A stretch of 64,000 nucleotides of DNA from Pristiophorus japonicus (lineage: Eukaryota), in assembly GCF_044704955.1 (NCBI RefSeq), contig NC_091983.1:58962001-59026000 (forward strand), given 5' to 3'. Shown one piece after another: positions 6,592 to 64,000 of the stretch; position 1 is the stretch's first letter; every line of letters starts with the position of its first letter. The translations under genes and the position numbers were made by a program. The notes beneath the pieces were generated by a model. It was not told the origin of the DNA and did no database searches. It was given only the letters and a program-made list of their open reading frames with translations.

Positions 6592-6644
6592 GGAAAATGT
6601 TAGAGAGGTAACAGATTTTAAGCAAGTAAAGAGGTGGGGAAGAA

Positions 6645-10023: not shown

Positions 10024-10095
10024 CTTGCTTTTAGTGCTGATTTCACTGCCTTGAGAACTGCTACTGCTGTGCCGTTTCTTTCCTTTCCGAAACAT
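10024..10095 (-). CDS. ITGB1BP1: ITGB1BP1 first coding exon (exon 10024-10127 including 5'UTR)
   Basis: Translates MFRKGKKRHSSSSSQGSEISTKSK, the ICAP-1 N-terminus. Acceptor tttcacag, donor aag|gta, phase 0 fits the next exon. Confidence 0.95.
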
Positions 10096-17320: not shown

Positions 17321-17326
17321 GTCAGG

Positions 17327-19260
17327 GATCATCTCCCCCCCCCCCCCATCTCTCATCCCCTCCCCATCTCTCATCCCCCCCCCTCCCCATCTCTCATCCC
17401 CCCCCCTCCCCATCTCTCATCCCCCCCCCTCCCCATCTCTCATCCCCATCTCTCATCCCCCCCCTCTCCCCATCTCTCATCCCCCCCCCTCCCCATCTCT
17501 CATCCCCCCCCCTCCCCATCTCTCATCCCCCCCCCCTCCCCATCTCTCATCCCCCCCCCCTCCCCATCTCTCATCCCCATCTCTCATCCCCCCCCCCACC
17601 CCATCTCTCATCCCCCCCCCTCCCCATCTCTCATCCCCCCCCCCTCCCNNNNNNNNNNNNNNNNNNNNNNNNNNNNNNNNNNNNNNNNNNNNNNNNNNNN
17701 NNNNNNNNNNNNNNNNNNNNNNNNNNNNNNNNNNNNNNNNNNNNNNNNNNNNNNNNNNNNNNNNNNNNNNNNNNNNNNNNNNNNNNNNNNNNNNNNNNNN
17801 NNNNNNNNNNNNNNNNNNNNNNNNNNNNNNNNNNNNNNNNNNNNNNNNTCTCCCCTCCCCCCATCTCTCATCCCCCTCCCCCCATCTCTCATCCCCCTCC
17901 CCCCAATCTCTCATCCCCCTCCCCCCCATCTCTCCCCCTTCCCCCCATCCCCCATCCTCCATCCCCCTCCCCCCATCTCTCATCCCCCTCCCCCCATCTC
18001 TCATCCCCCTCCCCCCATCTCTCATCCCCCTCCCCCCATCTCTCATCCCCCTCCCCCCATCTCTCATCCCCCTCCCCCCATCTCTCATCCCCCTCCCCCC
18101 ATTCTCATCCCCCTCCCCCCATCTCTCATCCCACTCCCCCCATCTCTCATCCCCCTCCCCCCATCTCTCATCCCCCTCCCCCCATCTCTCATCCCCCTCC
18201 CCCCATCTCTCATCCCCCTCCCCCCCATCTCTCATCCCCCTCCCCCCATCTCTCATCCCCCTCCCCCCATCTCTCATCCCCCTCCTCCCATCTCTCATCC
18301 CCTCCCCCCATCTCTCATCCCCCTCCCCCATCTCTCATCCCCCCTCCCCCCATCTCTCATCCCCCTCCCCCCATCTCTCATCCCCCTCCCCCCATCTCTC
18401 ATCCCCCTCCCCCCATCTCTCATCCCCCTCCCCCCATCTCTCATCCCCCTCCCCCCATCTCTCATCCCCCTCCCCCCATCTCTCATCCCCCTCCCCCCAT
18501 CTCTCATCCCCCTCCCCCCATCTCTCATCCCCCTCCCCCCATCTCTCATCCCCCCTCCCCCCATCTCTCATCCCCCTCCCCCCATCTCTCATCCCCTCCC
18601 CCATCTCTCATCCCCCCCTCCCCCTCCCTCATCCCCCCTCCCCCTCCCCATCTCTCATCCCCCCTCCCCTCCCCATCTCTCATCCCCCCCTCCCCCTCCC
18701 CATCTCTCATCCCCCCCTCCCCCCTCCCCATCTCTCATCCTCCCCCTCCCCATCTCTCATCCCCCCCTCCCCATCTCTCATCCCCCCCTCCCCATCTCTC
18801 ATCCCCCCCCTCCCCATCTCTCATCCCCCCCCTCCCCATCTCTCATCCCCCCCCTCCCCATCTCTCATCCCCCCCCTCCCCATCTCTCATCCCCCCCCTC
18901 CCCATCTCTCATCCCCCCCCTCCCCATCTCTCATCCCCCCCTCCCCATCTCTCATCCCCCCCCTCCCCATCTCTCATCCCCCCCCTCCCCATCTCTCATC
19001 CCCCCCCTCCCCATCTCTCATCCCCCCCCTCCCCATCTCTCATCCCCCCCTCCCCATCTCTCATCCCCCCCCTCCCCATCTCTCATCCCCCCCCTCCCCA
19101 TCTCTCATCCCCCCCCTCCCCATCTCTCATCCCCCCCCTCCCCATCTCTCATCCCCCCCCTCCCCATCTCTCATCCCCCCCCTCCCCATCTCTCTTACCC
19201 CCCCCCCTTCACATCCCCCCCTTCTCACATCTTCCCCCCCGCCCCCCCCATCTCTCATAT
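17327..19260. repeat. C-rich minisatellite, ~17-20 bp unit (cccc)atctctcatcccc(ctc)
   Basis: Tandem ATCTCTCAT cores separated by C-runs. Contains an assembly gap. Confidence 0.95.
17649..17848. other. Assembly gap (200 N)
   Basis: Run of n. Confidence 1.
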
Positions 19261-19636
19261 CCCCACCATCCCTCATCTCTTTTCCCACCCACCCACCACC
19301 ACCATATCACCTCCCTCAATTCCATTCCTCCCCAGTCCCACTGCCTTTTCAGGAGCAGCCTCCTCTGTTTGCCACCTCTCCGTGAGGGCACATCTGAGAC
19401 CTCCAATCCCCTGTTTGGGGAAGCTACAGGTTGGACGCACAATCCATCACTCAGTCGCCTCGAACATTGGAGTCACCCTACAGCAGCACTTTTTTTCTTT
19501 CTCTTCTCTTTTAGAACAAAACACCGTGCTGGTGATGGAAAATCTCAAGCTTCAATTTTGACTGAGTGACCTGTAAAGTTATCCGAAAATGTTTCTTATA
19601 GTTACTTAAATTTATACAGTAGAAAGTATTGCTTGA

Positions 19637-33060: not shown

Positions 33061-34172
33061 GGAACCAAGTTTCCACCCACCCTTGGAACAGCACACCTCC
33101 ATGAGGTCCGCCGATTTTCTGGAACAAAAAGCGCGCATAATTCTTATCGTGGTATTCTCCACGCTCATCAGGCCTCCTTCGGACTCGGCCGAGCGCAGCA
33201 GAACCAGCGGGGGGGGCGGAGCCAGGTCCCATGCTGAGAACACAGTGCCGGGACCTCTGCACATGCGCGCTAGAGTGTGCGCGCATGTGCAGTAGCTCCT
33301 CGCCCCCAGATTCTATGTGCATGTGCTGCAGGCTGTGTGGGAGAGGCCCGAAGCACGCCGCCCCTAGCCCTGGCTGAATGGGCACACCGCCATGACCTGC
33401 GAGGGAACAGATGGCAATATCCGTCATCGGAGACAGGAGATCCCGGGAACAGAAAGCCAAACAAGAAAGGGAGAAGGAGCTGGCAGAAGTGACCATCAAG
33501 AAGGAAGATGACTGAGGCCATTGAGTGTTCCTTGGGACTGTCTCGGAGATGTTCGGGAGGTGGGGGTAGCAGGAAAGCAGAGATTGGGGGCAAGATGTGA
33601 GTAGGATGGGATCTGGGCAGGCTCGTATGTTTAATGTTGCCGCCCCCTCCTCCACCATCGGCAGCCCGCTGCCTTCCCTTCACATAAAGGTAGGACTTCT
33701 AATTTTTATTTGTTATTGATTGATTGCTTATTACTTTGGTCTTGGTGCTTTACGTGCAGGATTCCTTCTATTTTTTATTTGTTAATTAATTGCTTATTAC
33801 TTTTTGTGCTTTGTTTAGTGCTTAGTGCTTTAAATGTACTTATGCTTCTTTAATGTTGTTGTGAAAGTGTTTAGTGCTTTGGAAAATCCTCTAACTTCCC
33901 CCCGCCTCCCCCCCCCCCCCCCCATCTCTGGCTACCTGCGCCTGATTTCTAAAGTGACCAAGGTTTTTCTGAGCGTACAAAAGCGGACACATACGTTGGC
34001 CTAAGTTAGTTTGGAGTAACTATTGGCTGTCTAAACTTGCTTAAATGGCCAAAACAGGTGTAAGTGGCTGGTAATGCTCCCTTTTGGGGAAAAAAAACTG
34101 AACTAAAAAGAACACCAAAAAAAACTAGTTGCTCCAAAAAAATAGGAGCAAGTCCTGTGGAAATTTGGCCCC
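33061..34172. mobile_element. Non-autonomous PIF/Harbinger-like element
   Basis: 16-bp imperfect TIRs ggaaccaagtttccac / gtggaaatttggcccc, resembling the end at 59454. Its 3' subterminal part recurs inverted at ~60664-60750. Confidence 0.7.
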
Positions 34173-40889: not shown

Positions 40890-43800
40890 CCTAGCCTGTC
40901 GGACCGCATTGCGGCACTGGAGCTGCGCATGGATTCACTCTCGAGCATCCGTGTTGCTGAGGATGTCGTGAATAGCACGTTTAGTGAGTTGGTCACACCA
41001 CAGATAAAGGTTACTCAGGCAGATAGGGGATGGGTGACCATCAGGTAGAGCAGGAGTAGGAAGATAGTGCAGGAGTCCCCTGTGGTCATCTCCCTCCAAA
41101 GCAGATATACCACTTTGGATACAGTTGGGGGAGATGGCTCATCAGGGGAAGGCAGCAGCAGCAGCCAAGTTCATGGCATCATGGGTGTCTCTGCTGTACA
41201 GGAGGGCAGGAAAAAGAGTGGGAGAGCTATAGTGGTAGGGGATTCTATTGTAAGGGGAAGAGATAGCCGTTTCTGCGGCTGCAATCGAGACGCCAGGATG
41301 GTATGTTGCTTCCCTGGTGCAAGGGTTAAGGATGTCTCAGAGCGGCTGCAGGGCATTCTGGAGGGGGAGGGTGAACAGCCAGTTGTCGTGGTGCCTATAG
41401 GTACCAACGATATAGGAAAAAACGGGATGAGGTCCTACAAGCTGAATTTAGGGAGCTAGGAGTTAAATTTAAAAAGTAGGACCTCAAAGGTAATAATCTC
41501 AGGATTGCTACCAGTGCCACATGCTAGTCAGAGTAGAAATAGCAGGATAGTTAAGATGAATACATGGCTTGAGGAATGGTGCAAGAGGGATGGATTCAAA
41601 TTCCTGGGACATTGGAACCGGTTCTGGGGGAGGTGGGACCAGTACAAACCGGACGGTCTGCACCTGGGCAGGACCGGAACCGATGTCCAAGGGGGAGTGT
41701 TCGCTAGTGCTGTTGGGGAGGGTTTAAACTAATATGGTAGGGGGATGGGAATCTATGCAGGGAGACTAAGGGAAGTAAAATGGGGGCAGAAGTAAAAAGG
41801 AGATAAGGAAAAGTGGATGGCAGAGGCAAAGGCAAAAATCAAAAAAGGGCCACATTACAACATAATTCTAAAAGGACAAAGAGTGTTAAAAAAAACAAGC
41901 CTGAGGGCCCTGTGTCTCAATGCGGGGAGCATTCATAATAAGGTGGATGAATTAACTGCGCAGATAGCTGTTAACGGATATGATGTAATTGGGATTACGG
42001 AGACATGGCTCCAGGGTGACCAAGGCTGAGAACTCAACATCCAGGGGTATTCAATATTCAGGAAGGATAGGCAGAAAGGAAAAAGAGGTGGGGTAGCATT
42101 GCTGGTTAAAGAGGAGATTAAAGCAATAGTAAGGAAGGACATTAGCTTGGATAATGTGGAATCTGTATGAGTAGAGCTGCGGAACAGCAAAGGGCATAAA
42201 ACGCTAGTGGGAGTTGTGTACACACCACCAAACGGTAGTAGTGAGGTCGGAGATGGCATCAAACAGGAAATTAGGGATGCGTGCAATAAAGGTACAGCAG
42301 TTATCATGGGTGACTTTAATCTACGTATAGATTGGATTAACTAAACTGGTAGCAATACGGTGGAGGAGGATTTCCTGGAACGTATAAGGGATGATTTTCT
42401 AGACCAATATGTCGAGGAACCAACTAGAGAGCTGGCCATCCTAGACTGGGTGTTGTGTAATGAGAGGATTAATTAGCAATCTTGTTGTGCAAGGCATCTT
42501 TGGGGAGAGTGACCATAATATGGTAGAATTCTTCATTAAGATGGAGAGTGACACAGTTAATTCAGAGACTAGGGTCCTGAACTTAAAGAAAGGTAACTTC
42601 GATGGTATGAGACGTGAATTGGCTAGGATAGACTGGCGAATGATACTTAAAGGGTTGATGGTGGATAGGCAATGGGAGACAGTTAAAGATCACATGGATG
42701 AACATCAACAATTGTACATCCCTGTCTGGCATAAAAATAAAACTGGGAAGGTGGCTCAACCGTGGCTAACAAGGGAAATTAGGGATAGTGTTCAATCCAA
42801 CGAAGTGGCATATAAATTGGCCAGAAAAAGCAGAAAACCTGAGGACTGGGAGAAATTTAGAAATCAGTAGAGGAGGACAAAGGGTTTAATTAGAAGGGGG
42901 AAAATAGAGTATGAGAGGAAGCTTGCTGGGAACATAAAAACTGACTACAAAAGCTTCTATAGATATGTGAAGAGAAAAAGATTAGTGAAGACAAATGTAG
43001 GTCCTTTGCAGTCAGAATCAGGTGAATTTATAATGGGGAACAAAGAAATGGCAGACCAATTGAACAAATACTTTATTTCTGTCTTCACTAAGGAAGACAC
43101 AAATAAAGTTCCAGAAATACTGGGGGACCGAGGGTCTTGCGAGAAGGAGGAACTGAAGGAAATCCTTATTGGTGAGGATATTGTTTTCGGGAAATGGATG
43201 GGATTGAAGGCCGATAAATCCCCAGGGACTGATAGTCTGCATCCCAGAGTACTTAAGGAAGTGGCCCTAGAAATAGTGGATGCATTAATGATCATTTTCC
43301 AACATTCTATAGATTCTGGATTAGTTCCTATGGATTGGAACGTAGCTAATGTAACCCCACTTTTATTTTTAAAAGGAGGGAGAGAGAAAACGGGGAATTA
43401 TAGAGCGGTTAGCCTGACATCGGTAGTGGGGAAAATATTGGAATGAATTATTAAAGATGTAATAGCAGCGCATTTGGAAAGCAGTGACGGGATCGGTCCA
43501 AGTCAGCATGGATTTATGAAAGGGAAATCATGCTTGACAAATCTTCTAGAATTTTTTGAGGATGTAACTAGTAGAGTGGACAAGGAAGAGCCGGTGGATG
43601 TGGTGCATTTGGACTTTCGAAAGGCTTTTGACAAGGTCCCACACAAGAGATTGGTATTGGGGTAATGCATTGATGTGGATGGAGAACTGGTTGGCAGACA
43701 GGAAGCAGAGAGTCGGAATAAATGGGTCCTTTTCAGAATGGCAGGCAGTGACTAGTGGAGTGCTGCAAGGTTCCATGCTGGGACCCCAGTTATTTACAAT

Positions 43801-47052: not shown

Positions 47053-47905
47053 TCTGAGCACTAATAGCCTAAAGTGTCCTCTGTGTGTGCTGAGTAAATT
47101 GAGCTCAGTCAGTCTAAAATCATTTCCAGTGAATATAAAATCAACAACACAAAATTGCCCATAATTCGGCATTAATTGGAGAGCCATGCTGGGCCAGGGA
47201 CAGACTGGTGGATGAATAATGCAGCTTTCATTAAATGTGTAGCAGCGTATCTGTTCTGAGGTTGAGATTAAAGCACATTGAACACTGCTGAGGAACTTTA
47301 TTGTGGCCTTAGCTCATGATATATTTGACCTGTGAGTGTTTGGCGCTGACAGTGATAAAAATGTTTTGATTTCCATTCCTGTTATTAATTACCTTGATGG
47401 GCACAAACATTTAAAAGGAAGAGAGAACTATTTTTCCAAGATTAATGAGGATTTATTTTTTTAATTCAAAAGCTTCCTAATTTTTGCCTGCCCTTTGTTC
47501 AGTTTGGAGTCTTTTAATTTAAAATAGAGTGAGGCTTAACTTAGGAAGAAATTCTTCCAACCATGTTAAGTGTTAACTTCGGTGGAATTCTTTCAATGTG
47601 AAGTATTCCCATCGAGGCAGATAATTTTTTTTTTAACTTTGTAGATGTTAAAGTTTATTGACCTCACCTGTGGCACCCAAACGTAGCAGGATGTCTCTTA
47701 ACTGAAACCAGCTGCAGGATCCATCAGAGAGTGGTTCTGTAGGATACAACACTTCCAGATTGACATGAGAAGAAATAAATTTAAATATTTACATTAAAGT
47801 ATGAATTTTTGTTACGCTTTGGAGTATGTGGAGCAGTTTTGTTAAAAGTAGCAGTCTACTTGCCTTTTAAAGGTTTCCTAATTCTATTCATATTTTTCCC
47901 CGCAG

Positions 47906-48010
47906 ATGGTTGTGTGTGAAGAGGGCAGTGTGGAGGATGAACCACTTCGAGAAATGGTTGAGGTGGCTGTACAACGGCTCTATGAAACAATACACCCAGC
48001 ACTATCTTAA
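47906..48010 (+). CDS. CPSF3: CPSF3 exon 18 (last coding exon)
   Basis: MVVCEEGSVEDEPLREMVEVAVQRLYETIHPALS*, acceptor ttttccccgcag. Confidence 0.95.
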   Translation: MVVCEEGSVEDEPLREMVEVAVQRLYETIHPALS

Positions 48011-48499
48011 AATTGTGAAAATCAGTATTAAATGTGACCTGTGATTTGTTTCAGATTGTAGGATGTAGTGTTTTAATCACATCCTCTGCTTTTGTTATGC
48101 TAAACCCATGCTGCAAATGATCTGATCTAGTCTGGACAAACTTAAAAATATGGATTTTGTTTCAACTTTAAAATAACTGACAACTTAGAAATACAAATAC
48201 ACCAGTAGCTGTTTTAACGAAAAAAATAGTTAATTACATCTTTTAGGCGACAATTAGAGACTGAGACTGCACTATTGTTGACTTTGCAGTCATGCTATAA
48301 TTATTTTCCTGTAAAAACAATGTATTTGCTGTCAATCTTGAACGAGTAGAAAGAAGATGGTCTGATTTGCTTATTTGATTCTTTAGTTCGTAAAATAAGT
48401 GGTGACACAGTCTTAACAAATGCGTTCTATGGTGTCTGCGTCAGGTGCATAGTAAGATGGAAGTAGTCCTGTTTAAAAACAAACTTAAATTTCTACAAA

Positions 48500-48505
48500 A
48501 ATAAA
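48500..48505 (+). terminator. Candidate CPSF3 polyadenylation signal AATAAA
   Basis: First AATAAA after the stop, followed by a T/GT-rich tract. Alternatives near 48834 and 49087. Confidence 0.55.
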
Positions 48506-49309
48506 TATTTTTTACAAAGATTTTTTTTTGTCATGCACTATACTTTGTGATTGCAGGAAACATTTGTACAAACTACACATTTTATTTATTTTGAATACAA
48601 AATATGGCTGTCAGGCATTACATTGTCATACAGTCTGGTTCGTACAGGATTGGCCATTTTTTTCAAAATGACTTATTAGGGGGATGGTGTTCACTGCTGT
48701 AGTAGTGTTTTTCTTCATTAAATGAAATATTCAGAGCAGATAACAATGGAGAATCTTGTGTGGTCTTAGATAGTTGTTACATTAACAGAAACATACAACA
48801 TTAATTGCAAACAGGAAATATAGGAACTGCTAAAATAAAAAAAGACCATGGTCCAATTAGTTCGTCTTCTAGCATTCTGGTAGTCACATGATGTGATGAG
48901 AATGCAATTATTGACTAATTATGACCATCAATTAATCTACACTAGACATGCAGTGAGGAAAGCCCATGGTGGAAAGTTTAGGTCCAAAGTCACCTCATCC
49001 CAAACCTGTTATACTTACCCAGGTCATGTTTCAAATTACTCTGGTGCTGTAGTCCAAAATATTCTCTGAAAGAAATGCAATGGAAAAATAAACTTTTGCA
49101 TTGTATTCTATACTAGGTCCTGCAATTTAAAAAGTAACTATCTTGGCCCAAAAACATTTTAAATAGGAGGATCAACTGTGTTTTGATGTACACTTTGCCA
49201 GACCTTAAGGGTTTTTAATACTGACACAAGGTAGGTAAGAAATATCCACTTTTATTACTTTTTAAATTTAAAATAAAACAAATGACAGACAAAAGCCCAA
49301 GGATAGGAA

Positions 49310-49620
49310 AAGCGCATTTGGCCTTTGCGAGCTCACCTGTGCTCTCACTGAGCCGCTGCCTCTCTGCTCCGCCCGGAACAGACGGGGACAGGGTGTGACA
49401 GTCCGGCCCTGCGGGCGGCGGCCAGCGTTCTCCCGACGTGGGACTGGCAGGGTCTGGGGCGCCGGGTTCAGTCGGTGCGATGTTGGGCTGTGGGCCTGAG
49501 TCATTTATTCGGAGACTCCATCGCTCAGATAGGAGCGGGCTGGGCTGGGCTTTCTAACCCGCACTGTCACTGGGAGCTCACCGGGCCCTGGGCCCTGCCC
49601 CGGCTGATTGTCTCCATTCT
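49310..49620 (+). promoter_or_regulatory. CpG island at the IAH1 5' end
   Basis: Sharp GC/CpG-rich block with a ccgccc box and ccggaa, surrounding the IAH1 exon-1 remnant. Confidence 0.6.
49488..49528 (+). pseudogene. IAH1: IAH1 exon 1 remnant (SGNH block I)
   Basis: ctg tgg gcc TGA gtc att ta ttc gga gac tcc atc gct cag|AT = LWA*VI(fs)FGDSIAQ versus IAH1 LWPRLLLFGDSITQ. Syntenic position downstream of CPSF3. Confidence 0.75.
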
Positions 49621-50808
49621 TTCCCGGGGATTGGGATCACTGGTAGCTCAGGAGGATCCCAGATTTGACACCCGGCCTGTGCTGAGTTGGTTAGCTCATC
49701 TCTGGAGAAGGGACGACATCCAAAAACCCTGCTCCTGGTCACCATTTGCTGGAAAGTGCCCCTGTGTGGGTGGCGAGGCAAAGATTGGGCTTTGGTACTG
49801 AACACCCCGCAATTGAATAGCTTTTAGTACAACCAGGAGCGCAAAACCCAGACCAGCAGACACATGGATTCTGTATTCTCGGTATGCTCCCCACCACTTA
49901 CAGCGGGTGCATTGCTGCTAACGCAATTTGCCCACTATACACGTTGGATGGTTTTAAGGGAATCGCTATGCCACCAAGTCATGAGTGATGCCTGAGCCTT
50001 GAGAATGAGTATTGGAGTGTGGGGATATCCGAGTGGTCACCTGAGGTCCATGCACCTGTACATTGCTGCAGCAGCACTGCACAGACCTGACAAAGACCTC
50101 ATGGTGCCTGGCAGCTGAGATCCCACATGTGTCTGAGGAGCACAGGCATTTGGACCCCAGAGGAAGAATTGGCATGGGAAGTGAAGAGAAATGGCATCTA
50201 GAGATGAGGAACGTCTTCTGGGGGCGTAGGTGTGATTGAACCAGTTGATGAGGATTCAGAGCCAGGACAAGGGTAAGAGATCTGAGAGGTGAGAAACTGA
50301 TCATTATCAAACAGAAACTGGATGAATTCATCAAAGAATATTGTTAATTAATCACAAGCAACACTTCATTGATTTGTATCATTTATTCAAGAAGCTGTCA
50401 ACTATTGAGTAAACACCTATTTTTGCCCGGAATACACAGAGCATAAGGTGTAAGCAGCAACTTTGTAATTGAGAGTTTGGGATGAGCTGAAGTTTATATA
50501 GCATGGAGGATGAGAAGACGGCCAGAACAACATTGGAAGAGTCGAGGCTGGAGATGACAAAGGCATGGATAAGGGTCAGCAGCAGATGAGCTGAGATAGG
50601 GGCAGAGGCAGGTGATGTTCTGGAGCTGGAAAGGATATCGGAGCAGAATCTCAGCTCAGGATTGAATAGCATGCCAAGGTTGCAAACAGTCTGTTTCAGT
50701 CTGAGCCAGTGGGATGATAGGATCGATGGCAAGGGTCGATCCTTGGAGGACTCAGGACATAAAGGTGCAGGGTCTGCAAGAAAAGTCGTTATGTAGATAC
50801 TTTGGCTG

Positions 50809-52860
50809 GAAACATAGAAAAATAGGTTGCAGGAGTAGGCCATACGGCCCTTTGAGACTGCACCACCATTCAATACGATCATGGCTGATCATTCCCTCAG
50901 TACCCCTTTCCTGCTTTCTCTCCGTACCCCTTTCCTGCTTTCTCTCCATACCGCTTGATACCTTTAGCTGTAAGGGCCATATCTAACTCCCTCTTGAATA
51001 TATCCAATGAACTGGCATCAACAACTCTCTGCGACAGGGAATTCCACAGGTTAACAACTCTGAGTGAAGAAGTTTCTCCTCATCTCAGTACTAAATGGCC
51101 TACCCCTTATCCAAAGACTGTGTCCCCTGGTTCTGGACTTCCCCAACATCGGGAACATTCTTCCTGCATCTAACCTGACCAGTCCCGTCAGAATCTTATA
51201 TGTTTTTATGAGATCCCCTCTCATCCTTCTAAACTCCAGTGTATAAAGGCCCAGTCGATCCAGTCTCTCCTCATATGTCAGTCCAGCCATCCCGGGGATC
51301 AGACTAGTGAACCTTCGCTGCATTCCCTCAATAGCAAGAATGTCCTTCCTCATTAGGAGACCAAAACTGAACACAATAGTCCAGGTGAGGCCTCACTAAG
51401 GCCCTGTACAACTGCAGTAAGACCTCCCTGCTCCTATTCTCAAATCCCCTAGCTATGAAGGCCAACATACTATTTGCCTTCTTAACTGCCTGCTCTATCT
51501 GTATGCCAACTTTCAATGACTGATGAACCATGACACCCAGGTCTCGTTGCACCTCCCCTTTTCCTAATCTGCCGCAATTCAGATAATATTCTGTCTTCGT
51601 GTTTTTGCCCCCAAAGTGGATAACCTCACATTTATCCACATTATACTGCATCTGCCATGCATTTGTCCACTCACCTAACCTATCCAAGTCAGCCTGCAGC
51701 CTCTTGGCGTCCTCCTCACAGCTCACACCACCACTCAGTTTAGTGTCATCTGCAAACTTGAAGATATTACACTCAATTCCTTCATCTAAATCATTAATGT
51801 ATTTTGTAAAGAGCTTGGGTCCCAGCACTGAGCCCTGCGGCACCCCACTAGTCACTGCCTGCCATTCTGAAAAGGACCCGTTTATCCCGACTCTCTGCTT
51901 CCTGTCTGCCAACCAGTTCTCTACCCACGTCAATACATTACCCCCAATGCCATGTGCTTTGATTTTGCACACCAATCTCTTGTGTGGGACCTTGTCAAAA
52001 GCCTTTTGAAAGTCCAAATACACCACATCCACTGGTTCTCCCTCGTCCTCAAAAAATTCTAGAAGATTAGTCAAGCATGATTTCCCCTCCATAAATCCAT
52101 GCTGACTTGGACCGATTCTGTCACTGCTTTCCAAATATGCTGCTATTTCATCTTTAATAATTGATTTCAACATTTTCCCCACTACTGATGTCAGGCTAAC
52201 CAGTCTATAATTACCCGTTTTCTCTCCCTCCTTTTTTGAAAAGTGGTGTTACATTAGCTATCCTCCAGTCCATAGGAACTGATCCAGAGTTGAAAGACTG
52301 TTGGAAAATGATCACCAATGCATCCACTATTTCTAGGGCCACTTCCTTAAGTACTCTGGGGTGCAGACTATCAGGCCCCGGCGATTTATTGGCCTTCAAT
52401 CCCATCAATTTTCCTAACACAATTTCCCGCCTAATAAGGATATCCTTCAGTTCCTCCTTCTCATTAGACCCTCGGTCTCCTAGTACTTGGGGAAGGTTAT
52501 TTGTGTCTTCCTTCGTGAGGACAGAACCAAAGTATTTGTTCAACTGGTCTGCCATTTCTTTGTTCCCCATTATAAATTCACCTGAATCTGACTGCAAGGG
52601 ATCTACGTTTGTCTTCATTAATCTTTTTCTCTTCACGTATCTATAGAAGCTTTTGCAGTCAGTTTTTATGTTCCCAACAAGCTTCCTCTCATACTCTATT
52701 TTCACCCTTCTAATTAAACCCTTTGTCCTCCTCTGCTGAATTCTAAATTTCTCCCAGTCCTCAGGTTTGCTGCTTTTTCTGGCCAATTTATATGCCTCTT
52801 CCTTGGTTTTAACACTATCCCTAATTTCCCTTGTTAGCCACGGTTGAGCTACCTTCCCCG
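50809..52860 (-). mobile_element. CR1 LINE, 5'-truncated (~2 kb), same young subfamily as 40890-44770
   Basis: ORFs 52211..52909, 51328..52182 and 51051..51374 carry [26 protein letters not shown]. 24-bp tandem duplication at ~50900-50950. Confidence 0.93.
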
Positions 52861-53189
52861 GATATGTAAAAGTGGAAACAAGTGAGGACAGTCTTGCTAA
52901 GCTGGACAATGGAGGAAGATGGTGTGGTTAACTATGTCAAAGGCTGTACAACGAGGTCGAGGAAGGATAATCACTGTCACAGATACAAAAGATATAATTT
53001 GTAGCTGTGGTTAGGGCCATTTTATTGCTGTGACAGGGGCAGAAACCAGATTGGAGAGATTCAATCAAAAAATTGTTGGCAAGATGGGTAAGGATTTTAG
53101 AGGCATGTTCAAGGACCTTGGAGAGAAATGGGAGGTTTGAAATGGAGCAGTAATTTTCAAGGACAAAGGGGTCTATGGTCGGTTTTCTG

Positions 53190-53600
53190 ATCATCATCAT
53201 AGGCAGTCCCTCGGAATCGAGGAAGACTTGCTTCCACTCTAAAAATGAGTCTTTAGGTGGCTGAACAGTCCAATACAAGAACCACAGTCCCTGTCACGGG
53301 TGGGACAGATAGTCGTTGAGGGAAAGGGTGGGTGGGACTGGTTTGCCACACGCTCTTTCCGCTGCCTGCGCTTGATTTCTGCATCCTCTCGGCGATGAGA
53401 CTCAAGGTGCTCAGCGCCCTCCCAGATGCACTTCCTCCACTTAGGGCTGTCTTTGGCCAGGGACTCCCAGGTGTCAGTGGGGATGTTGCACTTTATCAGG
53501 GAGGCTTTGAGCGTGTCCTTGTAATGTTTCCTCTGCCCACCTTTGGCTCGTTTGAAGGAGTTCCGAGTAGAGCGCTTGCTTTGGCAGTCTCGTGTCCGCA
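53190..53600 (-). mobile_element. RTE-clade LINE 3' end
   Basis: GGQRKHYKDTLKASL...W...CPT.DRDCGSCIGLFSHLKTH (C-terminal zinc finger), (tga)n tail at ~53190. Confidence 0.8.
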
Positions 53601-54859
53601 GACAATGTGAGGATGGGTGATGACGGCAGCTTTGAAAGGAAAGGGAACAGTACTTGGGAGGAAAGTGAAGCACTTACAATGTTAACTGGAATGGGGGACG
53701 TTAGATGGCCAGCAGTTTAATGGGAATGTGATCAAGGGAACAGGAGGTGTGTCTTATGGACAAAAGGAGCTCGGAGAGGGTATGACAGTAAATAGGAGAG
53801 GAACTAGAGAAGGATGAGGGTTAGGGCAAGGAGAACATGGGGGAATTTGGTTTGCTGGGATGGAGGATGAGGGGGAGGAAGCAGAGCCGGCTGAATGGAT
53901 GGTTTCAGTGACAAAGAAATCCATGAGCTCCTTGCATTTGTTGTTGGTGATGAGGGTGCAACGGCAGGGAGAAGGGTTTGAAGAGATGGTTGGTTTGGTC
54001 GGCAGAGGAAAAAGAGAACCAATGGCAGCACCGAGAGGCTCTGCACAGTCACAAGGCAGAAGAGTAGAAGCAGTATCCACGTGTACTTGGTCTGGCAGGC
54101 CATACTCAGAATGTATTTTACAGAACAGAAAGAGGCCATTTGGTCCATCACACTTGTGCCAGCTCTCTGAAAGAGAGGTCCACAGTCCCAGTTCCCTATT
54201 TCTGTTTAAGTTTTACTTTTTCAAATATTTACTCACTGCCCTTTGAATATTTGGTATGGATTCTGCTTCCGCCATTGTTTGTGATCTTCTAACAACCCTC
54301 TGTAAAAAAAATTAATTAAAAAAATAACAACACACGTTTATATTGTGCATATCACCTAGAAACACATTCCAAGGCACTACACCAAGAGATAAAGGGGAGA
54401 AGTCAATCCCAAGTCAAAGAAGAGGGGCGAGTGAAAACTATATTAAATAAGTGAGTTTTAAGATCTTAAAGGAGGTGTCAAGGCCGAGGGATCTAGGTAG
54501 AGAATTCTGCAGAATAGGACCCCAAGGTGTGAATCCAGGGATCTAAAGTGCAAATGCTGGCCATACAGATTGGAGGGATATGGCTCAATCTGAAAGACAT
54601 AGTCCAGTTATGAGGCATTATACCACTGGGTGTGTAATGACCCGGGATGGGCAAGGAATATGGCATTCATCCTTCGAGGTAAATGGGCAGCCACCAAATG
54701 CTTGCATGATGCAAGGCGTACCTTGACACTAGTACATACACCTCTGGTGCAGAGTGGCCAGTATATAAAGGATAGGGTAGCCTGAATTCCTGGTTTTTCA
54801 GATTTCGTTTACATTCCTTTGGCTGAGGTACAGCTAGTACATCACTCGGAAGTTCATAT

Positions 54860-55440
54860 ATACATCATCTTTAGACACTCCCTTATCCACTATTAGTGCT
54901 AGTGACCTCCTCAAAAATGTCAACTAAGTTAGTCAGGGGTGACCTATCCTTCACAACTGCATGCTGACTCTCTTTGATCAGCTCATACTGGTCCAAATGC
55001 TCAGTCAATCTGTCTCTGATGATAGACTCCACTAATTCCCCACAATTGATGTTAAACTGATAGGTCTGTGGTTACCTGATTTCAAACCTCCCTTCTTAAC
55101 TAATGCAGTGACATTTGCAATTTTACAATCCAAAGGCTTGATTCCTGAATCTAGAAATAGTGAACCAAAGCTGTAGAAAATTATGACTAATGTATCTGCA
55201 ATTCCTCCAGCAGTGTATTTTAATGCACTAGGGTGGTAACCATCAGGTTCTGAAAATCTATATATCTTAAATCCCATTATTTTCTCCCCTAGCATTTTTC
55301 TTACTTATGTAAATCCATTAAGTTCCTCCCCTTGACTTATTTTTAGGTTCCCTTGTATCACCAGTGGTCGTGCCCGCTTCCTCTACTGTGAAAATGGATA
55401 CAAAATATTAATGGAACAAGTCTACCATTTCCTTATTGTC
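54860..55440 (-). mobile_element. Older CR1 ORF2 fragment
   Basis: PDGYHP, KIANVT, HRPISLTSIVG. Confidence 0.7.
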
Positions 55441-55943
55441 CATTATAATCTAGTCTATGGCCAATATAATGAAGGGACAAGAAACGTGTGTGGTTACTCT
55501 GAGTCAGGGAAAGGTTCTGGGCTGAACCAGACCAAAGCAGCAGCAGCGTCTCACCTGCAGCAGTGACCCTGCCCACATGGCAGCAGACGCAGAGGCCAGG
55601 CTGCAGGGTTAGGAGTCACATGCTACTGCAGTGAGCTCAGCTGCATTGAAGCATGCGAGGGAGCTGATGCCATCCCACGTAATAAATCGCTGGATGCAAT
55701 CAACCTTGGTTAGGTTGAGCTGCACTAAGTTAGTTGAGGCTCTGCAGATCGATCCAACACAAGAGGTTAAGCAAGTTCAGACGACAGAAGGCATCACTGA
55801 CTGCAGGCCAGCCTGCAGAATGGTACAGTTGTGCAGATGGGTTTTTGATCTAACAGTGCAGTTTAGCATCAGTTGAGGGATAGGAATCAGAAGTGTTCCA
55901 ACTGATAAGGCACTACAGGTATACCACCAAGATTTATTAAAGG

Positions 55944-57025
55944 AACATAAGAATATAAGAAATAGGAGCAGGAGTAGGTCACCTGGCCCCTCTAGCCTGC
56001 TCCACCATTTAATAAGATCATGGCTGATCTGACCATGGACTCAGTTTCACTTCCCTACCCGTTCCCCATAATCCTTTATTCCCTTTCGCTCAAAAATCTG
56101 TCTCTCCGACTTAAAAATATTCGATGACCTAGCCTCCACAGCTCTCTGGGGCAGAGAATTCCACAGATTTACAACACTCTGAGAGAAGAAATTCCTCCTC
56201 ATCTCTGTTTTAAATAGGCAGCCCTTATTCTGAAACTATGTCCCCTAGTTTTAGTTTCCCCTATGAGTGGAAACATCCTCTCTGCATCCACCTTGTCGAG
56301 CACCCTCATTATCTTATACGTTTCGATAAGAACATCTCTCATTCTTCTGAACTCCGATGTGTATAGACCCAACCTACTCAACCTATCTTCATAAGTCAAC
56401 CCCCTCATCTCCGGAATCAACCTAGTGAACCTTCTCTGAACCGCCTCCAATGCAAGAATATCCTTCCTTAACTACAAAGACCAAAACTGTATGCAGAACT
56501 CTAGGTGTGACCTCACCAATACCCTGTACAGTTGTAGCAGGACTTCTCTGTGTTTATACTCTATCCCCCTTGCAATAAAGGCCTGCATTCCATTTGTCTT
56601 CCTGATTACTTGCTGTACCTGCATACTAACTTTTTGTGTTTCATGCACAAGGACCTCCAGGTCCCTCTGTACTGCAACACTTTGCAATTTTTCTTCTTTT
56701 CTGCCAAAGTGGATAACCTCACATTTTCCCACATTATACTCCATCTGCCAATTTTTTGCCCACTCACTTAGCCTGTCTATATCCCTTTGCAGATTTTTTG
56801 TGTCCTCCTCACAATTTGCTTTCCCACCCATCTTTGTATCATCAGCAAACTTGGCTACATTACACTCTGTTCCTTCAAGTCATTAATATAGATTGTAAAT
56901 AGTTGAGGCCCCAGCACCGATCCCTGCAGCATCCCATTAGTTACTGTTTGCCAACTGGAAAATGACCAATTTATCCCAACACTCTGATTTCTGTTAGTTA
57001 GCCAATCCTCTGTCCAGACTAATAT
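55944..57025 (-). mobile_element. CR1 LINE 3' fragment
   Basis: QGSVLGPQLF, GKCEVIHFG, LVRSHLEFC, and CR1 tail. Confidence 0.9.
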
Positions 57026-57559
57026 AAAGGGAGCCCATAACATCTGACTTGGAGGAAATCAGGGCGGGGGGGGCAGGGTGGTGGAAACGCAAAAAGAACA
57101 AATTATGGTAGCACTTTTACTGGACCACTATTTCTAATGACGTAGGAATTTTTTCGGATGTGTGATCAGTGTCAGTAAATGGATAAACCAGGGATCACAA
57201 CAAAGCACCTTTGCAACCCCTATCCATTATGAACAAACCTAAAGCAGGTGTGCCTCGATGTCTTAGGCTCAATGCCTGTCGGGAATCACTGAAGGGAATG
57301 CTACATGTTGAACATGGTAAATTATGTGTCCTAGTATTCAAGTGCTTCAGTGGAAATGGACATTCAGGTCAATGTGCTGTTATGAATAGTTATTTTCCAG
57401 AGGGATATTGTTCAATTAGATTCCCATTAGTGATTCACTTGTGGCAGTATGGTCAAATAAAGCCTCTTTAATCATCTCATACCAAGGTTTGATGTCATAC
57501 TGACTAGAGTGTTGCGTGCATCATTGAACAGAACCCAGAGCGCTGAAGGCACGGAAGTA

Positions 57560-57884
57560 CAGGTTGAACCTTCCTTATCCAGAGCTCCCTTATCCGGAAC
57601 CACCCCTCATCCGGAACCATTCCTGGCCACCAGGTGGCGCATGCGCAGAACTCCAACATGAACAAATTGAAGTCCTTCCTCGTTGCGGACTCCCGTAATC
57701 GCTGGCCTGACCCCGCGATCCACCCCCCCTCCCCCCCATGATCTCTCTGCCGCACACGCAGCCCCAAGCCTGCCAGCCCCGATATTCAGTACCTGAACCA
57801 TCCAATTTAATGTGACCTCCCCTCGTCCGGAAAAATCCCTTATCCAGAACAGGCCAGAGTTCTGGATAAATGAGGTTCAACCTG
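57560..57884. mobile_element. Tc1/mariner-pogo(Tigger)-like MITE
   Basis: ~28-bp TIRs caggttgaaccttccttatccagagctc / gagttctggataaatgaggttcaacctg. Left flank TA, right flank TC. Confidence 0.75.
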
Positions 57885-58343
57885 TCCTGCAAGAATCTAC
57901 AAGGTTCTTTCTATTGGAATTCCTATCGGGGCAGAGAACCCTTTCCTTTAATGCTAATCAGAGAGATTTGGTCAGGGAAGACCATTGATGAGAACAGGAA
58001 TGTTATAACCGGCTGAGTGTTTCGGCATTTTCTGCTTTTGTTTTACACAGTTGTACAGTTCAACTCTCACCACAAAGCTGCAAATTTGAGCCTCAGCTCC
58101 AACTCCTTAATGGGGCGTTTCAGCCATTGTCAAATGCTCCTACAGAATAACAGACCTCCTCATAGAATGTGGGATTCCCATTTCACAAGGGTGGTGGGTT
58201 AGAGGAAGAGAAGAAAACTTGACTTAAAAGCCACTTGTGTCACCTGAGTTCTCTGTGAGATGGTCTGTGATGTGATGTGTGGCAGAAAAGTGGCAGCAAA
58301 ACCTAAATTGTTTTTGATTATGTAATTGTGTAACTATTCTTAT

Positions 58344-58396
58344 TGTTCCTCAGAGAAAAGAGGGTGGGGTGCTGCAATTGCAAACAGACTTGATAG
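58344..58396 (+). pseudogene. IAH1: IAH1 exon 2 remnant
   Basis: 53 nt CSSEKRGWGAAIANRLD(R)|gtaagt versus IAH1 FSFQQGGWGASLADRLVR. The expected acceptor reads ttcttAT instead of AG. Confidence 0.75.
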
Positions 58397-58564
58397 GTAA
58401 GTTAAAATATCTGTATATGACGTGATGTCTGTAAAGGAGCTGTCCACCTTAATCAGTTGGCAATAGAATTGTTAATACAATACTGCAGTTCTACCAAACT
58501 GCAACTTTAAAAAATCAAAAGTAAACAATAAAAAGAGAACAGCACTTCGTTGCAACTATTAGAA

Positions 58565-58790
58565 CTCTCCTACTCGTCTTCAAAATAGTGCCATGGAATC
58601 TTTTACATCCACTTGAACAGGCATACAGTGCCTTGGTCTCATCTGAAAGACAGCACAGTACTCGAGTGCCTGCCTAGAATAACACTGGAGTGCCGGTCTA
58701 GAATTTTGCACTTAAGTCTTCAGTGGGACTTGAACCCACAACCTTCTAACGCCAAGGCGAGAGTGCTACTACTGAGCCATGGCCAACACC
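58565..58790 (-). mobile_element. Partial tRNA-SINE (same family as 23410)
   Basis: Reverse complement of the head and core (aaaatagtgccatggaatctttt; actgagccatggccaacac). Confidence 0.7.
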
Positions 58791-58924
58791 TAAGAACAAA
58801 ACAACATCATAGAACAAAATGAACACAGAGCAGAAGCTAACAGCTGGGGCAGAAAAAGCTGATGAAGGGAAAATTCTTTTGTAAATCTTTGCAAACAGGG
58901 AGGGAAATGGTAAGGTAGAAGGAC

Positions 58925-59290
58925 TTTCAGAGGGGAGGGGCACAGTAGCACAAAGGATGGCCATCTATGGTGGAGCAAAGATCACAAGGAATGGGGAATA
59001 CAGCAGTATCAAAGGAGTGAAGGATGTGAGCATGGGTATAGAGGACTGAATGAAATCGAGGTAGGATGAGACTTGGCTGTGGAGGCACTTGATGGGGATG
59101 AGGATCTTGAAATTGCTTCGTAAGGGTATGGAGATCAGTGAATCCTAGCATGGTTATAGGTAACGGAAGTAGGTCAGAATGAGGGCTGTGACATTCTAAA
59201 TCAGGTTTGTGGAGGGTGGAAGCAGGAAGGTCGGGTAGTAGAGCATTAGAGCAGTCAAACCTCAAGGTAATAAAGGTGTCATTTTGACAG
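58925..59290 (-). mobile_element. L2 fragment
   Basis: TFITLRFDCSNALL remnant. Confidence 0.55.
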
Positions 59291-59348
59291 TTGCTCTCAA
59301 CAAAATTGCACAGTTTCTGAGTACGAGTATACAAGCAGAATAGATCAT

Positions 59349-59453
59349 ACAAAAGCAAAATACTGCAGATGCTGGAAATCTGAAATAAAAACAGAAAATG
59401 CTGGAAATACTCAGCAGGTCTGGCATGATCTATGGAGAGAGCAACAGAGATAA
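59349..59453 (-). mobile_element. Penelope pseudo-LTR end, cut by the Harbinger insertion
   Basis: Reverse complement of ~22470-22566. Confidence 0.75.
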
Positions 59454-60540
59454 GGGGCCCAAATTTCCCCAGCCGCCTAGAGCGGCATAGTTAGGGGCGG
59501 CACACCGACTTTGTGAGACAAAAAATGCGCCAAAAATGTACCTGGTAATTTGGCTGCTCCCTCATCCTCCAGATCCATCGACATGGCACTGCAGAGCCTG
59601 TGGGGGGGGGGGGGGGGGGGCGGAGCTTTGGCTGGACTTCCTCAGCGCAGCTGGCAGGGGGGGAGGGGCTTGGGCCCAGCATCTCATGGAGTGCCGGTAG
59701 GAGGACGCATGTCAGTTTGAGCGTGCGCGCATGTACAATGCGCGTTTCAGCATGCGAAGTGGAACAGAAAGCTTGGCAATTGGGCAATTAAAGGGAGAGC
59801 ATCCTCAATATCATTGGTAATGGAGCATATATAAAGGTGAGGTCTGAATATTGATTTTTGTGTGGCTGAGGGAGTGGAAAGGAGTGCTGGAGAAAGGTGG
59901 AAGAGAGGTGTAAGTGTGATTTTTGAACATTACCTGAGTGAGTCCAATAGACGAATGGCGCAAGAGCATGCAACAAGAACAAAGAATTTCCTCCATGAGG
60001 AAGTGGAGAAACTAGTGACTGTCATTGAGAAGAAATGGCTGGAGTTGGATATCAGCAAGAGTGGTCCCACAAAAGTTTCACCCAAGGAAATGAGAAGAAG
60101 ATGGAACCTAGTTGCAGAAGAATACTCCGCAGGAGTGAATACCGCAAGATCTGGAAGCCAGTGCAAAAAGAAATGGCAGGACCTTAGTTCAAGTAGTGAG
60201 TGTAAGTAATACCTTCATCTTTAAATTGAATTGCAGTTGAAAATGTGATTATCTGTATGTGCCCCACCCATCAGAAGCGCATCATGTGTGAAAATTAAGA
60301 TTTTCATCTTTGCAGAATAAATTGGCCCACAACAAAAGGGAAAGACTTTGAACAAGAGGAGGTCCGCCAAATCTGCACCAACTGTCACCCCTGGAAAAGA
60401 GGGTTGCTGCCTTGCAGAGTCGCACTGGCAGAAAAAGAATCAGCTCTGCACAAGCTAAACCCACACGCGAGGGTGAGGGCGAGTCATTCAAATGCATAGT
60501 CGCCCTTCAAATTAACCTGCTGACTGGCCTGCTACGATCA
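59454..60540 (+). mobile_element. PIF/Harbinger transposon left arm with a decayed intron-containing Myb/SANT DNA-binding gene (59955-~60202, 60316-~60472)
   Basis: Starts taa|ggggcccaaatttcccc. Protein RTKNFLHEEVEKLV...RRWNLVAE...RSGSQCKKKWQDL. gtaagt...ttgcag intron, then NKLAHNKRERL*TRGGP. Confidence 0.8.
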
Positions 60541-60938
60541 GACTACTCATGCCACCCATCCTGCACCCTCCTGTGCTGCTAACCATTTGACTGTTGAAAT
60601 GAGCCATAAGCAAGGTCCTGAGTTTGATTCCCAGGCTATGCAGTTAGCTGATCTCTGCCAACTAACTTAGGCCAGTGTATGTGGCCACTTTTGTAGGCAC
60701 CGAAAAACCTGACCTACATTTAAAAAATCAGCGCAGGTAGCCAGAGATAGTGGGGGTGGAGGGGGACGGGGGGGTGGGGAAGGCGAGTTAAATTCCCTGC
60801 AGTGCCTACCTTCTGTAAGAGATAACATGTAGGAAGATACAGTACTACAAACTAGTGCTATGTTAGTAATATGCACGTGTTCACAAGAAATTGCTTTAAA
60901 ATGAAGCGGAGATAAACTTGTCTTGAAAAATAGAATAA

Positions 60939-61369
60939 TGGAGTTAATTGCTTCAGGAGCAGTTTTGAGAGCTTCGTTATATAGCTTGTACTCTGCAGGT
61001 TTATCATCTGTCATACCACATTGTGTAACTTGTCCTCACGGTTTGTGACTAGATGTGAACCCAGTGCAGCACATTCCTCTCGCTGAGTGTGCTGAAAATC
61101 TGAAACATATAATCCAATAGCTGAAATCTATAGGTGCTTGTGAAGAAAAGATGATCTTGATAATACCACCTCCTCTGGGTGAGTCAGCCTGGAAAAAGAC
61201 ATGCATTGCCATTGGTAATAGAAACATATTCATATACACAATTAAAAAACACTTCAGATTTTTGGAGTTAATTGCTTCAAGAGCAGTTTTGAGAGCTTCG
61301 TTACATAGCTTGTACTCTGCAGGTTTATCATCTGTCATACCACATTGTGTAACTTGTCCTCACGGTTTG
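60939..61369. repeat. 107-bp direct repeat (60939-61045 and 61263-61369)
   Basis: Two copies differ at 2 positions. Confidence 0.9.
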
Positions 61370-64000
61370 CGGTCAGAAAATCTATGGACTCATAAAGAAT
61401 CTCCTCTCACCCTTAAGTCCAATGGACAAGGACTATGAAACATTGTGTGCTCTGGTATATGACCATCTCAAACCAGATGAAGGCATCATCATTTCAAGAT
61501 ATCAATTCTATACGCACGTTCATTCTGAGGGCCAGGATCTATCGGAATTCGTTGTCGACCTAAGATGTCTAGCTGGACCGTGTAAGTTCAAAACTGCGTT
61601 GGCAGACATGCTGCGGGACTTCTTTGTAATCGGCATCAATCACGAGGTGATCCTGCATAAGCTACTGGCGGCGGAGACGCTGGATTTGAGCATGGCCATC
61701 ACGATTGCCCAATCATGCATGAGGACGGACAAAAGCTTAAAGCAGATATCATTGAAAAATCGGAACTCGGCAAGTACTGTAAACAAGATAGTACCGTCAT
61801 TTGGTAGAACTGCATATGGCAGGGCCTACCCGACTGCGTACGCAAAACCTGTGTCTGCTCAAAGTCCGCCAACGGGAAAGAATCCGATATCATCGTGTTG
61901 GTGTTGTGGGGGAAATCATCGACATCATCAGTGTCGGTTTAAACAGTACATTAGTAAAGGCTGTTCGAGAGTGGGGCATCTCCAGCGCATGTGTCCGCAA
62001 CTGAGCAAGCGTGCTGCGAAACAGCACGTGGAGGATGATGACCAGTCTAGCGCAGATCCGGATATGCAATCCGAGATACCAGAGGAGGAAGTGTATGGAC
62101 TGTATTCATTCCTAACAAAGAGCCAACCGATAATGATTAATGTGAAACTTAATGGTGTGCCGGTATCGATGGAATTGGACACAGGTGCAAGTCAATCAAT
62201 AATGAGCCAGAGGACATTTGACAGGCTGTGGGATACTAAGGCTGTGAGACCTAAGCTGAGTCCAGTCAATACCAAGTTGCGTACGTACACTAAAGAACTC
62301 ATAACGATGATTGGCAGTGCAGTAATCAAGGTGTCGTATGATGGTGCGGTTCACCATTTACCGTTGTTATGGATTGTTCCAGGCAATGTTCCAACGCTGT
62401 TCAGCAGGAACTGGTTAGAAAAAATCAAATGGAACTGGAACGAGATCAAAGCAATGTCATCGGAGGAGGATACTCCATGAGCTCAAGTGCTGAGCAAGTT
62501 CCCCTCGCTGTTTGAACTAGGCATCGGCAATTTCACAGGAGCCAAGGTGCAGATTCAAGTGGACTCGGATGCAAGACCTGGCACTGAGAATTGTGCCGAT
62601 GCATTGAGCCGTCTGCCATTGTCCACACCGGAGGTGGAAATGCCACAACCGGAAGATCTCCTGTTAGTCATGGATGCTTTTGAAAGTGAAGGAACCTCTG
62701 TCAAGGCCCAACAAGTTAAGATCTGGATCAGCCAGGACCCGATATTATCAGTTGTGAAACTTTGTATCCTTAGTGGTGATTGGTCTGCCATACCCAAGCA
62801 AATGTGTGAGGAGACCAAACCTTACATCTGTCGCAAAGACGAAGTATCCATTCAATCAGATTGTATACTGTGGGGTAATCGTGTTGTTATGCCCAAGAAA
62901 GGCAGAGAGAAATTTGTGCATGATCTACATAGCACGCATTCTGGTATTGCCATGATGAAAGCCATTGCCAGGTCTCATGTATGGTGACCTAGAATTGACT
63001 GTGCTCTGGAATCATGTGTGCATCAGTGGAACACTTGCACGCAGCTTAGTAAAGCACCAGCGGAATCGCCGCTGAGTCTGTGGTCGTGGCCATCTAAACC
63101 ATGGTCCAGGATCCACATCAACTTTGCAGGTTCCTTCCTGGGAAAGATGTTCTTAATTGTGGTAGATGCTTATTCCAAGTGGATAGAGTATATAATCATG
63201 TCATCCAGCACATCCACAGCTACCATTGAGAGCCTTCGTGTCATGTTTGCTACGCGTGGTCTGCCTGACAGTGTTGTAAGCGACAACAGATCTTGCTTCA
63301 CCAGTATGGAGTTTCAAGAGTTCATGAAACTCAATGGTATCAAACATGTAAGGTCAGCACCATTCAAACCAGCATCCAATGGACAAGCAGAGCGTGCAGT
63401 CCAAACCGTCAAGCAGAGTATGAAACGTGTAACTCAAGGTTCACTGCAAACTCGCTTGTCACGCATATTGCTTAGTTACAGGACAAGACTCCATATGCTT
63501 ACCGGGGTCTCCCCTGCTGAACTATTGATGAAGAGAGGTCTCAAGACCAGACTCTCTCTTGTCCACCCTGACTTGAATAATCGTGTCGAATACAGACATC
63601 AAAGTCAGCAAGGGTATCATGATCACGCTACTGTGTCATGCGACATTTCTATCAATGATCCTGTGTATGTACTGAATTATGGTCAAGGTCCCAAATGGAT
63701 TGCCGGTACTGTTATGGCCAAGGAGGGTAACAGAGTGTTTATCGTTAAGCTCAAGAATGGGCAGACATGCAGCAAATATGTCGATCAGATAAAGCTGCGT
63801 CACACGGATGAACCGGAACAGTCTGAGGAAGACATAATCAGTGACCAACCAACCTACCCTCAGTCATCAGAGGACTCCGCTGTCATCTGGACTTTCAATC
63901 ACTGACATGGTCAATGATTCTGGACTTTCAATCCCTGACGTGGTCATTGCCACTCCCATCAGATTGGCTACCCAGCCTCCAGTCATAACAGATTCAGAAC
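61358..64000 (+). mobile_element. Ty3/Gypsy LTR retrotransposon internal region: gag, zinc knuckles, protease, integrase; RT/RNaseH missing
   Basis: Gag LRDFFVIGI, knuckles CWCCGGNH...CSRVGHLQRMC, protease ELDTGAS, ADALSRLP, integrase HSTHSG, RIHINFAG, VSDN, SNGQAERAV. Premature stops present. Confidence 0.92.

Follow-up and report, generated by a model that had tools for sequence, protein, structure and literature searches.

A probable unitary pseudogene of the esterase gene IAH1 behind CPSF3 in Pristiophorus japonicus

We analyzed a 64,000-nucleotide (nt) stretch of the Pristiophorus japonicus genome (RefSeq assembly GCF_044704955.1, contig NC_091983.1, positions 58,962,001 to 59,026,000 of the forward strand; hereafter the window) in which a sequence-only reading had proposed a decayed copy of IAH1, a gene for an SGNH esterase. 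Remnants of IAH1 exons 1, 2 and 4 stand in order on the plus strand over 11.7 kb, with 8.8 kb separating exon 1 from exon 2 and 2.7 kb separating exon 2 from exon 4. Disabling lesions are present in the coding sequence, and the locus is almost certainly a pseudogene. The genes of the window follow the order ITGB1BP1 (minus strand), CPSF3 (plus) and IAH1 (plus), which we take to be the order expected in vertebrates and with which a bird gene model, P0068, agrees. That model joins CPSF3 to IAH1 exons 2-6 in the same adjacency and is probably an annotation read-through. ADAM17, the neighbor expected downstream of IAH1, would fall beyond the window. The earlier claim that the remnant occupies the syntenic position of IAH1 was confirmed, since exons 1, 2 and 4 are ordered behind CPSF3 and exon 4 groups with elasmobranch IAH1. 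The wide spacing of the three exons argues against a processed pseudogene, and from its structure the locus reads as an intron-containing gene at the orthologous position and not as a retrocopy. Exons are numbered as in the sequence-only reading and in the human gene; the exon breaks match both the splice flanks in the window and the junctions in the isoforms of relatives.

Positions 48600-64000 were scanned with frameshift-aware profiles of the IAH1 exons, with 30 shuffles as the chance control for exon scores; the scan was run without one teleost row, in which the exon 4 pattern was not matched. The exon 1 remnant (49480-49528, plus strand) starts with an ATG at 49480, carries an in-frame TGA at 49497-49499 and has lost 1 nt in 49500-49510. 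Within this latter interval, GTCATTTATTC, the frame changes, one frame giving LWA*VI and another giving LFGDSIAQ from 49505 (49505-49528). The splice donor of exon 1 is dead, with AT where GT is expected (49529-49530; CAG followed by AT at 49526-49530), and the first donor-like GT in the 370 nt beyond it is at 49766. The exon 2 remnant (58344-58396, plus strand; 58342-58396 as a feature) has 53 nt, CSSEKRGWGAAIANRLDR, and retains its GTAAGT donor, while the acceptor is dead, reading AT at 58342-58343; a possible cryptic AG occurs at 58352-58353. Intron 1 is thus without working splice sites at both ends. Direct reading found the stop and the frame change where the sequence-only reading had placed them, and its account of the two AT dinucleotides and of the surviving donor was likewise correct.

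Exon 2 scored 60.0 in the profile scan against a shuffle maximum of 33.5, and exon 1 scored 34.0 against 33.0. We accepted exon 1 despite this marginal score because the remnant was the top match for its profile, ended exactly at 49528, stood in the correct order, lay in a CpG-rich patch and aligned with a whale-shark sequence. The patch covers the IAH1 5' end (49351-49650, plus strand; GC content 0.66, observed-to-expected CpG ratio 0.68) and the leader there is still whale-shark-like; window positions 49399-49530 aligned by tblastn with the whale-shark IAH1 isoform P0126 at an E-value of 2e-4. The short remnants alone (24-35 residues) had no match in PDB or Pfam, and a homologue search with exon 2 gave one candidate and no matches.

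Exon 4, which the sequence-only reading had missed, was found by tblastn of retrieved proteins against the window at 61053-61214 of the plus strand (64.0 bits, with none of 10 shuffles exceeding 1.4). It spans 162 nt, has intact AG and GT splice sites and scored 207.0 in the profile scan against a shuffle maximum of 46.2. The exon is interrupted by an in-frame TAG at 61118-61120 and shows further changes at conserved residues; exon 4 alone had no Pfam match. Exon 3 was not detectable in the interval expected to hold it (58397-61052, plus strand), where the best score, 32.7, stayed below the 38.7 reached in 50 shuffles, nor in 48600-64000, where the best was 38.3 against a shuffle maximum of 46.3, and a broader profile agreed. 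The expected interval is filled by pieces resembling short and long interspersed nuclear elements (SINEs and LINEs) and by a Harbinger-type element. When exon 3 was planted with 20% base changes and a deletion, all 30 trials gave scores of 62.0 or higher. Exon 3 of the relatives contains NRG and GAND, which are two of the four SGNH catalytic motifs; we presume that NRG corresponds to SGNH block II. The earlier expectation that exons 3-6 would lie beyond the window was wrong for exon 4, which is inside the window, and for exon 3, which is missing from its expected place; exons 5 and 6 are not in the window. Two further candidates were set aside. An exon-5-like score ending at 58714 (40.8 versus a shuffle maximum of 33.5, and 37.8 versus 36.2) was in the wrong order and inside a high-copy SINE-like repeat, and a match at 13692-13730 (E-values 0.014-0.88) was taken as chance.

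The positions 49101-49540 contain three ATGs, none of them in either IAH1 exon 1 frame. All three relatives with exon 1 in frame have Met 39 nt before the Phe of FGDS and 60 nt from the ATG to the end of the exon, versus 28 nt and 49 nt for ATG 49480 in the window. This ATG reads MLGCG versus MSSCG in Heterodontus, and downstream of it runs the same shifted frame as in the whale-shark isoform. On the simplest reading, ATG 49480 is likely the original start, put out of frame by the loss of 10 nt and 1 nt; alternatively, the original start was at about 49470 and has been destroyed. The earlier statement that no in-frame ATG occurs nearby is therefore accurate for all three ATGs, but the start was likely kept out of frame and not lost. 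Ribosomes starting at ATG 49480 would read 25 codons in the wrong frame and meet a stop inside intron 1. No ATG occurs in exon 2, and none of the three frames of exon 4 is open. According to PMC4757993, SGNH enzymes depend on four residues: Ser in block I, Gly in block II, Asn in block III and His in block V. The block I Ser (GDS, codons 49511-49519) is out of the frame of any start codon, with no in-frame ATG upstream and a dead donor downstream, and the block II Gly and the Asn of block III (GxND) were not found, exon 3 being undetectable in 48600-64000. The DxxH motif of block V belongs to exon 6, which the window does not include. Given the frame and stop behind ATG 49480, the lack of an ATG in exon 2, the missing exon for blocks II and III and the closed exon 4, the allele at 49480-61214 is predicted to be incapable of yielding a protein with esterase activity.

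To gather relatives of the locus, metagenome contigs were scanned for motifs; of the 26 loci obtained, one had an animal-type IAH1 exon; this locus retrieved 261 proteins, mostly named IAH1 among the 120 listed. Exon 4 as the query returned a sole match, Pristis pectinata IAH1 isoform X2 (80%), itself named IAH1. With the Pristis protein as the next query, isoforms of Rhincodon, Mobula, Heterodontus and Chiloscyllium came up as cluster representatives. In these five other elasmobranchs, the IAH1 exons covered by the annotated isoforms have open frames. The TGA of exon 1 falls where the three relatives with exon 1 in frame read W-P-K/Q or S-P-R, and the TAG of exon 4 where all five read Y. Exon 3 is present in the isoforms of three of the five species (Mobula, Heterodontus and Chiloscyllium) and is skipped in those of Pristis and Rhincodon. 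Mobula isoform X2 has all four SGNH motifs, although half of its exon 4 is absent; the cluster representatives retrieved did not include a complete elasmobranch IAH1 isoform. The single Pristis match had prompted the idea of a loss common to all elasmobranchs, which we rejected because the five species have open exons; the loss is not elasmobranch-wide, and the comparison upholds the earlier proposal that it is lineage-specific.

Exon 4 shares 44 of 55 residues with Pristis IAH1 and 41 of 55 with a second relative. In a tree of exon 4 (55 columns, 12 rows), the window sequence fell inside a five-row elasmobranch clade with support of 100/99; its placement beside Pristis (85/80) was not firm. 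Its branch length was 0.22 versus 0.024-0.057 for four relatives, that is, 4-9 times longer, as is expected after loss of constraint.

Several isoforms of the relatives depart from the full exon series. Pristis isoform X2 (P0121) passes from exon 2 to exon 4 and Rhincodon isoform X3 (P0126) from exon 1 to exon 4, each in a shifted frame, and an exon-skipping IAH1 isoform (P0123) is also annotated in Latimeria. The shifted frames of the Pristis and Rhincodon isoforms match the exon 1 and 2 remnants of the window. In Heterodontus francisci, IAH1 isoforms X2, X4 and X1 (P0134, P0272 and P0273) all continue beyond exon 5 into an unrelated tail and are without the exon that carries the catalytic DGLH. 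These tails could reflect annotation, an assembly gap or a second IAH1 erosion, and isoform X3, which was not seen, may be the complete form. The isoforms without the catalytic last exon give a hint of a second, independent erosion.

The neighboring CPSF3 served as the control for sequence quality. It extends over 17122-48010 of the plus strand in 15 tblastn segments with the fused bird model, looks intact and is transcribed, and it had no stops in 642 codons. Sequencing runs X1 and X2 held all, and runs X3 and X4 a share of 0.96, of 143 words sampled over 48500-49900. Since these four runs come from one sample (S1), possibly the source of the assembly, they check the assembly only and not the species. 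A DNA contig of run X3 covering 57829-58595 has a single difference from the window, at 58385, a synonymous site 42 nt from the acceptor, and so the dead AT acceptor of exon 2 is kept in a read-derived contig; another contig of this run, 60981-61334, covers exon 4. On the read check that had been called for, the runs thus contain all or nearly all of the sampled words around exon 1, and a read-derived contig retains the exon 2 lesion. The view that the lesions are not sequencing errors is borne out by the control, by read contigs that agree at exons 1 and 2 and by the open exons of five relatives.

No run was listed as RNA for the words sampled over 48500-49900. In runs X5, X6 and X7, contigs start at 47905 and are preceded by letters that differ from the window, as in spliced RNA, the last CPSF3 exon beginning at 47906 and the 3' untranslated region (UTR) extending to at least 48743; judged by these joints, the three runs behave like RNA. 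The share of 0.13 in run X5 was considered as a signal from IAH1 exon 1 and rejected, being explained by a contig of the CPSF3 3' UTR (47905-48743). Read depth over the exon 1 bin was 0, 2.49 and 0, which says nothing on expression or on a second copy. No piece or joint of exon 1, 2 or 4 was present among the rows listed, which were dominated by repeats at a likeness floor of 92% and give no evidence on either matter. A depth of 19 on the exon 4 contig, versus 9-13 on most neighbors, was not taken as copy number. Run X3 also showed single-letter changes and a 15-nt insertion, and run X5 a 12-nt insertion in the CPSF3 3' UTR; the variant positions across these two runs were 48577, 55782, 57484, 58385 and 58837.

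The stop in exon 4 and the missing exon 3, together with the intact CPSF3, the read contigs and the open exons of five elasmobranchs, strengthen the pseudogene reading. We consider it probable that this is the orthologous IAH1, broken and lost as a unitary gene, and that it has long decayed without selection in its lineage. Several observations weigh against this view. Exon 1 alone is barely above its shuffles, and exons 5 and 6 were not found in the window by the profile scan. Exon 4 changes 7-9 of the 40-41 sites invariant in three relatives, compared with 2-3 for each relative, an excess that is borderline alone (Fisher p 0.03-0.06, with sites that are not independent). The lesions are covered by one sample, with no second individual among the contigs listed; the exon 4 contig has one differing letter whose place is not shown; and the loss of exon 3 rests on the assembly, none of the contigs listed spanning exon 2 to exon 4. 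An assembly or sequencing artefact hiding an intact IAH1 could draw on this unbridged gap and on the 200 N letters in a low-complexity tract of the window. It is largely refuted and hardly credible, as CPSF3 is free of stops, the read contigs agree at exons 1 and 2 and the lesions are for the most part base substitutions that lie outside homopolymers.

DNA from a single sample, and contigs that drop rarer variants, would be compatible with a null allele or haplotype confined to one animal, or with a loss so recent that the population still carries an intact allele. We regard this as very improbable, because six or more separate lesions spread along 12 kb and a 4- to 9-fold longer branch need a long time without selection, and because the run X3 contig differs at 58385 yet retains the dead acceptor. 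Sharks also mutate slowly, at 7e-10 per base per generation (PMC10587355). More weight goes to a duplicated pseudogene, in which IAH1 was copied or moved, an intact copy is active elsewhere and the copy at the ancestral site decayed. The locus is structurally active, with a local duplication at exon 4 and many transposons, an intact copy could lie elsewhere in the genome, and IAH1 has been kept from yeast (3MIL) to mammals. We still judge this explanation unlikely, as the dead copy is the one at the conserved position with a CpG-rich 5' end, and no intact protein nearer than that of Pristis (80%) was among the cluster representatives searched. Relocated gene copies are, moreover, the rarer outcome. 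A functional product of the locus, either shortened (e.g., made from exons 5-6) or a non-coding RNA driven by the CpG-rich promoter, would fit the retained CpG-rich 5' end and leader, the intact splice sites of exon 4 and the annotated exon-skipping isoforms of Pristis and Rhincodon. We give this idea next to no credence, since the skipping isoforms need an open exon 4, which here is closed in every frame, the exon of the nucleophile Ser is out of frame and blocks II and III are gone.

For a unitary loss, a first inactivating hit, which cannot be told from the later ones, would have released IAH1 from selection. Point changes, small deletions and the deletion removing exon 3 would then have accumulated, while transposons inserted and the stretch after exon 4 underwent a local duplication-deletion. 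Other esterases cover the function, which is likely why the loss was tolerated. The amount of decay and the low mutation rate of sharks suggest that the loss is old and likely shared with related species. Dating by the epaulette-shark rate gave approximately 7e7 generations for approximately 5% decay by hand arithmetic, which is implausibly old, and no date is claimed. Only tentatively do we raise an ancient loss common to a whole shark or ray family or order, which would be the first vertebrate lineage without IAH1.

Compared with elasmobranch IAH1, the locus shares its exon breaks with the isoform junctions of relatives but has no open reading frame, no exon 3 and dead splice sites at both ends of intron 1. 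GULO and UOX in primates are unitary pseudogenes of vertebrates. The locus resembles these in being intron-containing and dead at the orthologous position, with several independent lesions and intact relatives, and differs in that a working copy elsewhere is possible and no trait can be tied to the loss, animal IAH1 having no known physiological substrate. In PMC7224509, mice with Iah1 knocked out are viable and do not accumulate additional fat in the liver; the paper describes the mouse protein as one of unknown function. These mice likewise indicate that complete loss of IAH1 is compatible with life; their loss was engineered and short-term, whereas the one described here is natural and probably long-standing. 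No vertebrate loss of IAH1 was reported in the titles and abstract openings covered, which mostly leave out subscription journals, and IAH1 could appear in the gene-loss tables that accompany genome papers. The locus is a new example of an ordinary event, gene loss, in a conserved but dispensable gene, and it is not startling since such losses are common and Iah1-null mice are healthy. Its importance is modest: the esterase is conserved throughout eukaryotes but has no known role in animals, and any lesions that prove to be shared, the exon 3 deletion for instance, would make clean phylogenetic markers in the slowly evolving elasmobranchs. If an ancient shared loss were true, it would provide a natural long-term knockout beside relatives that keep IAH1, and thereby a comparative route to the animal substrate.

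The sequence-only reading had also described Harbinger and Gypsy elements invading intron 2. This stood for the first only, a Harbinger-type element with a Myb domain lying between exons 2 and 4; the Gypsy-type piece lies after exon 4. The former is a DNA transposon remnant (59454-60773, plus strand) with a Myb/SANT open reading frame at 59841-60206 (Pfam PF13873 and PF13837), high-copy in the reads and with an end-like motif at 59454. We use the name Harbinger on the basis of the Myb domain and of an end motif that we presume to be typical. A CpG-rich segment in a CPSF3 intron (33151-34170) is 80% similar over 116 nt to the end of this element. The Gypsy-type piece, a decayed long terminal repeat retrotransposon in intron 4 (61370-63902, plus strand; Pfam PF13650, PF00077 and PF00665), has protease and integrase domains and several stops; no reverse transcriptase domain was detected by Pfam. 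Around exon 4 (60932-61369, plus strand), the closing piece of the preceding intron, approximately 114 nt at 60932-61045, recurs downstream of the exon at 61256-61369 with 96% identity. The second copy of this intron piece runs directly into the middle of the Gypsy gag reading frame, and the junction 61255/61256 is bridged by a run X3 contig (record 8). In 61256-61400, the duplicated piece meets the gag frame through letters fitting both sides, like a microhomology-mediated deletion. We infer a duplication and then a deletion after exon 4; a duplicate of exon 4 may have been deleted or may be located further downstream.

Upstream of CPSF3, the ITGB1BP1 (ICAP-1) coding exons 1 and 2 are at 10024-10095 and 4659-4760 of the minus strand (4659-10095 overall), with matches to Pfam PF10480 (E-values 3.5e-06 and 3.2e-10) that cover profile positions 1-24 and 24-57. 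The first intron of CPSF3 contains a long C-rich low-complexity tract (17300-19560), which includes the 200 N letters of the window. Another CPSF3 intron holds a LINE ORF1 remnant (41049-41729) with SGNH-like GDS, GTND and DGLH motifs. It matched IAH1 weakly by tblastn (E-value 0.42) and is likely not an IAH1 exon; we take it to be the esterase domain of CR1/L2-type ORF1 proteins.

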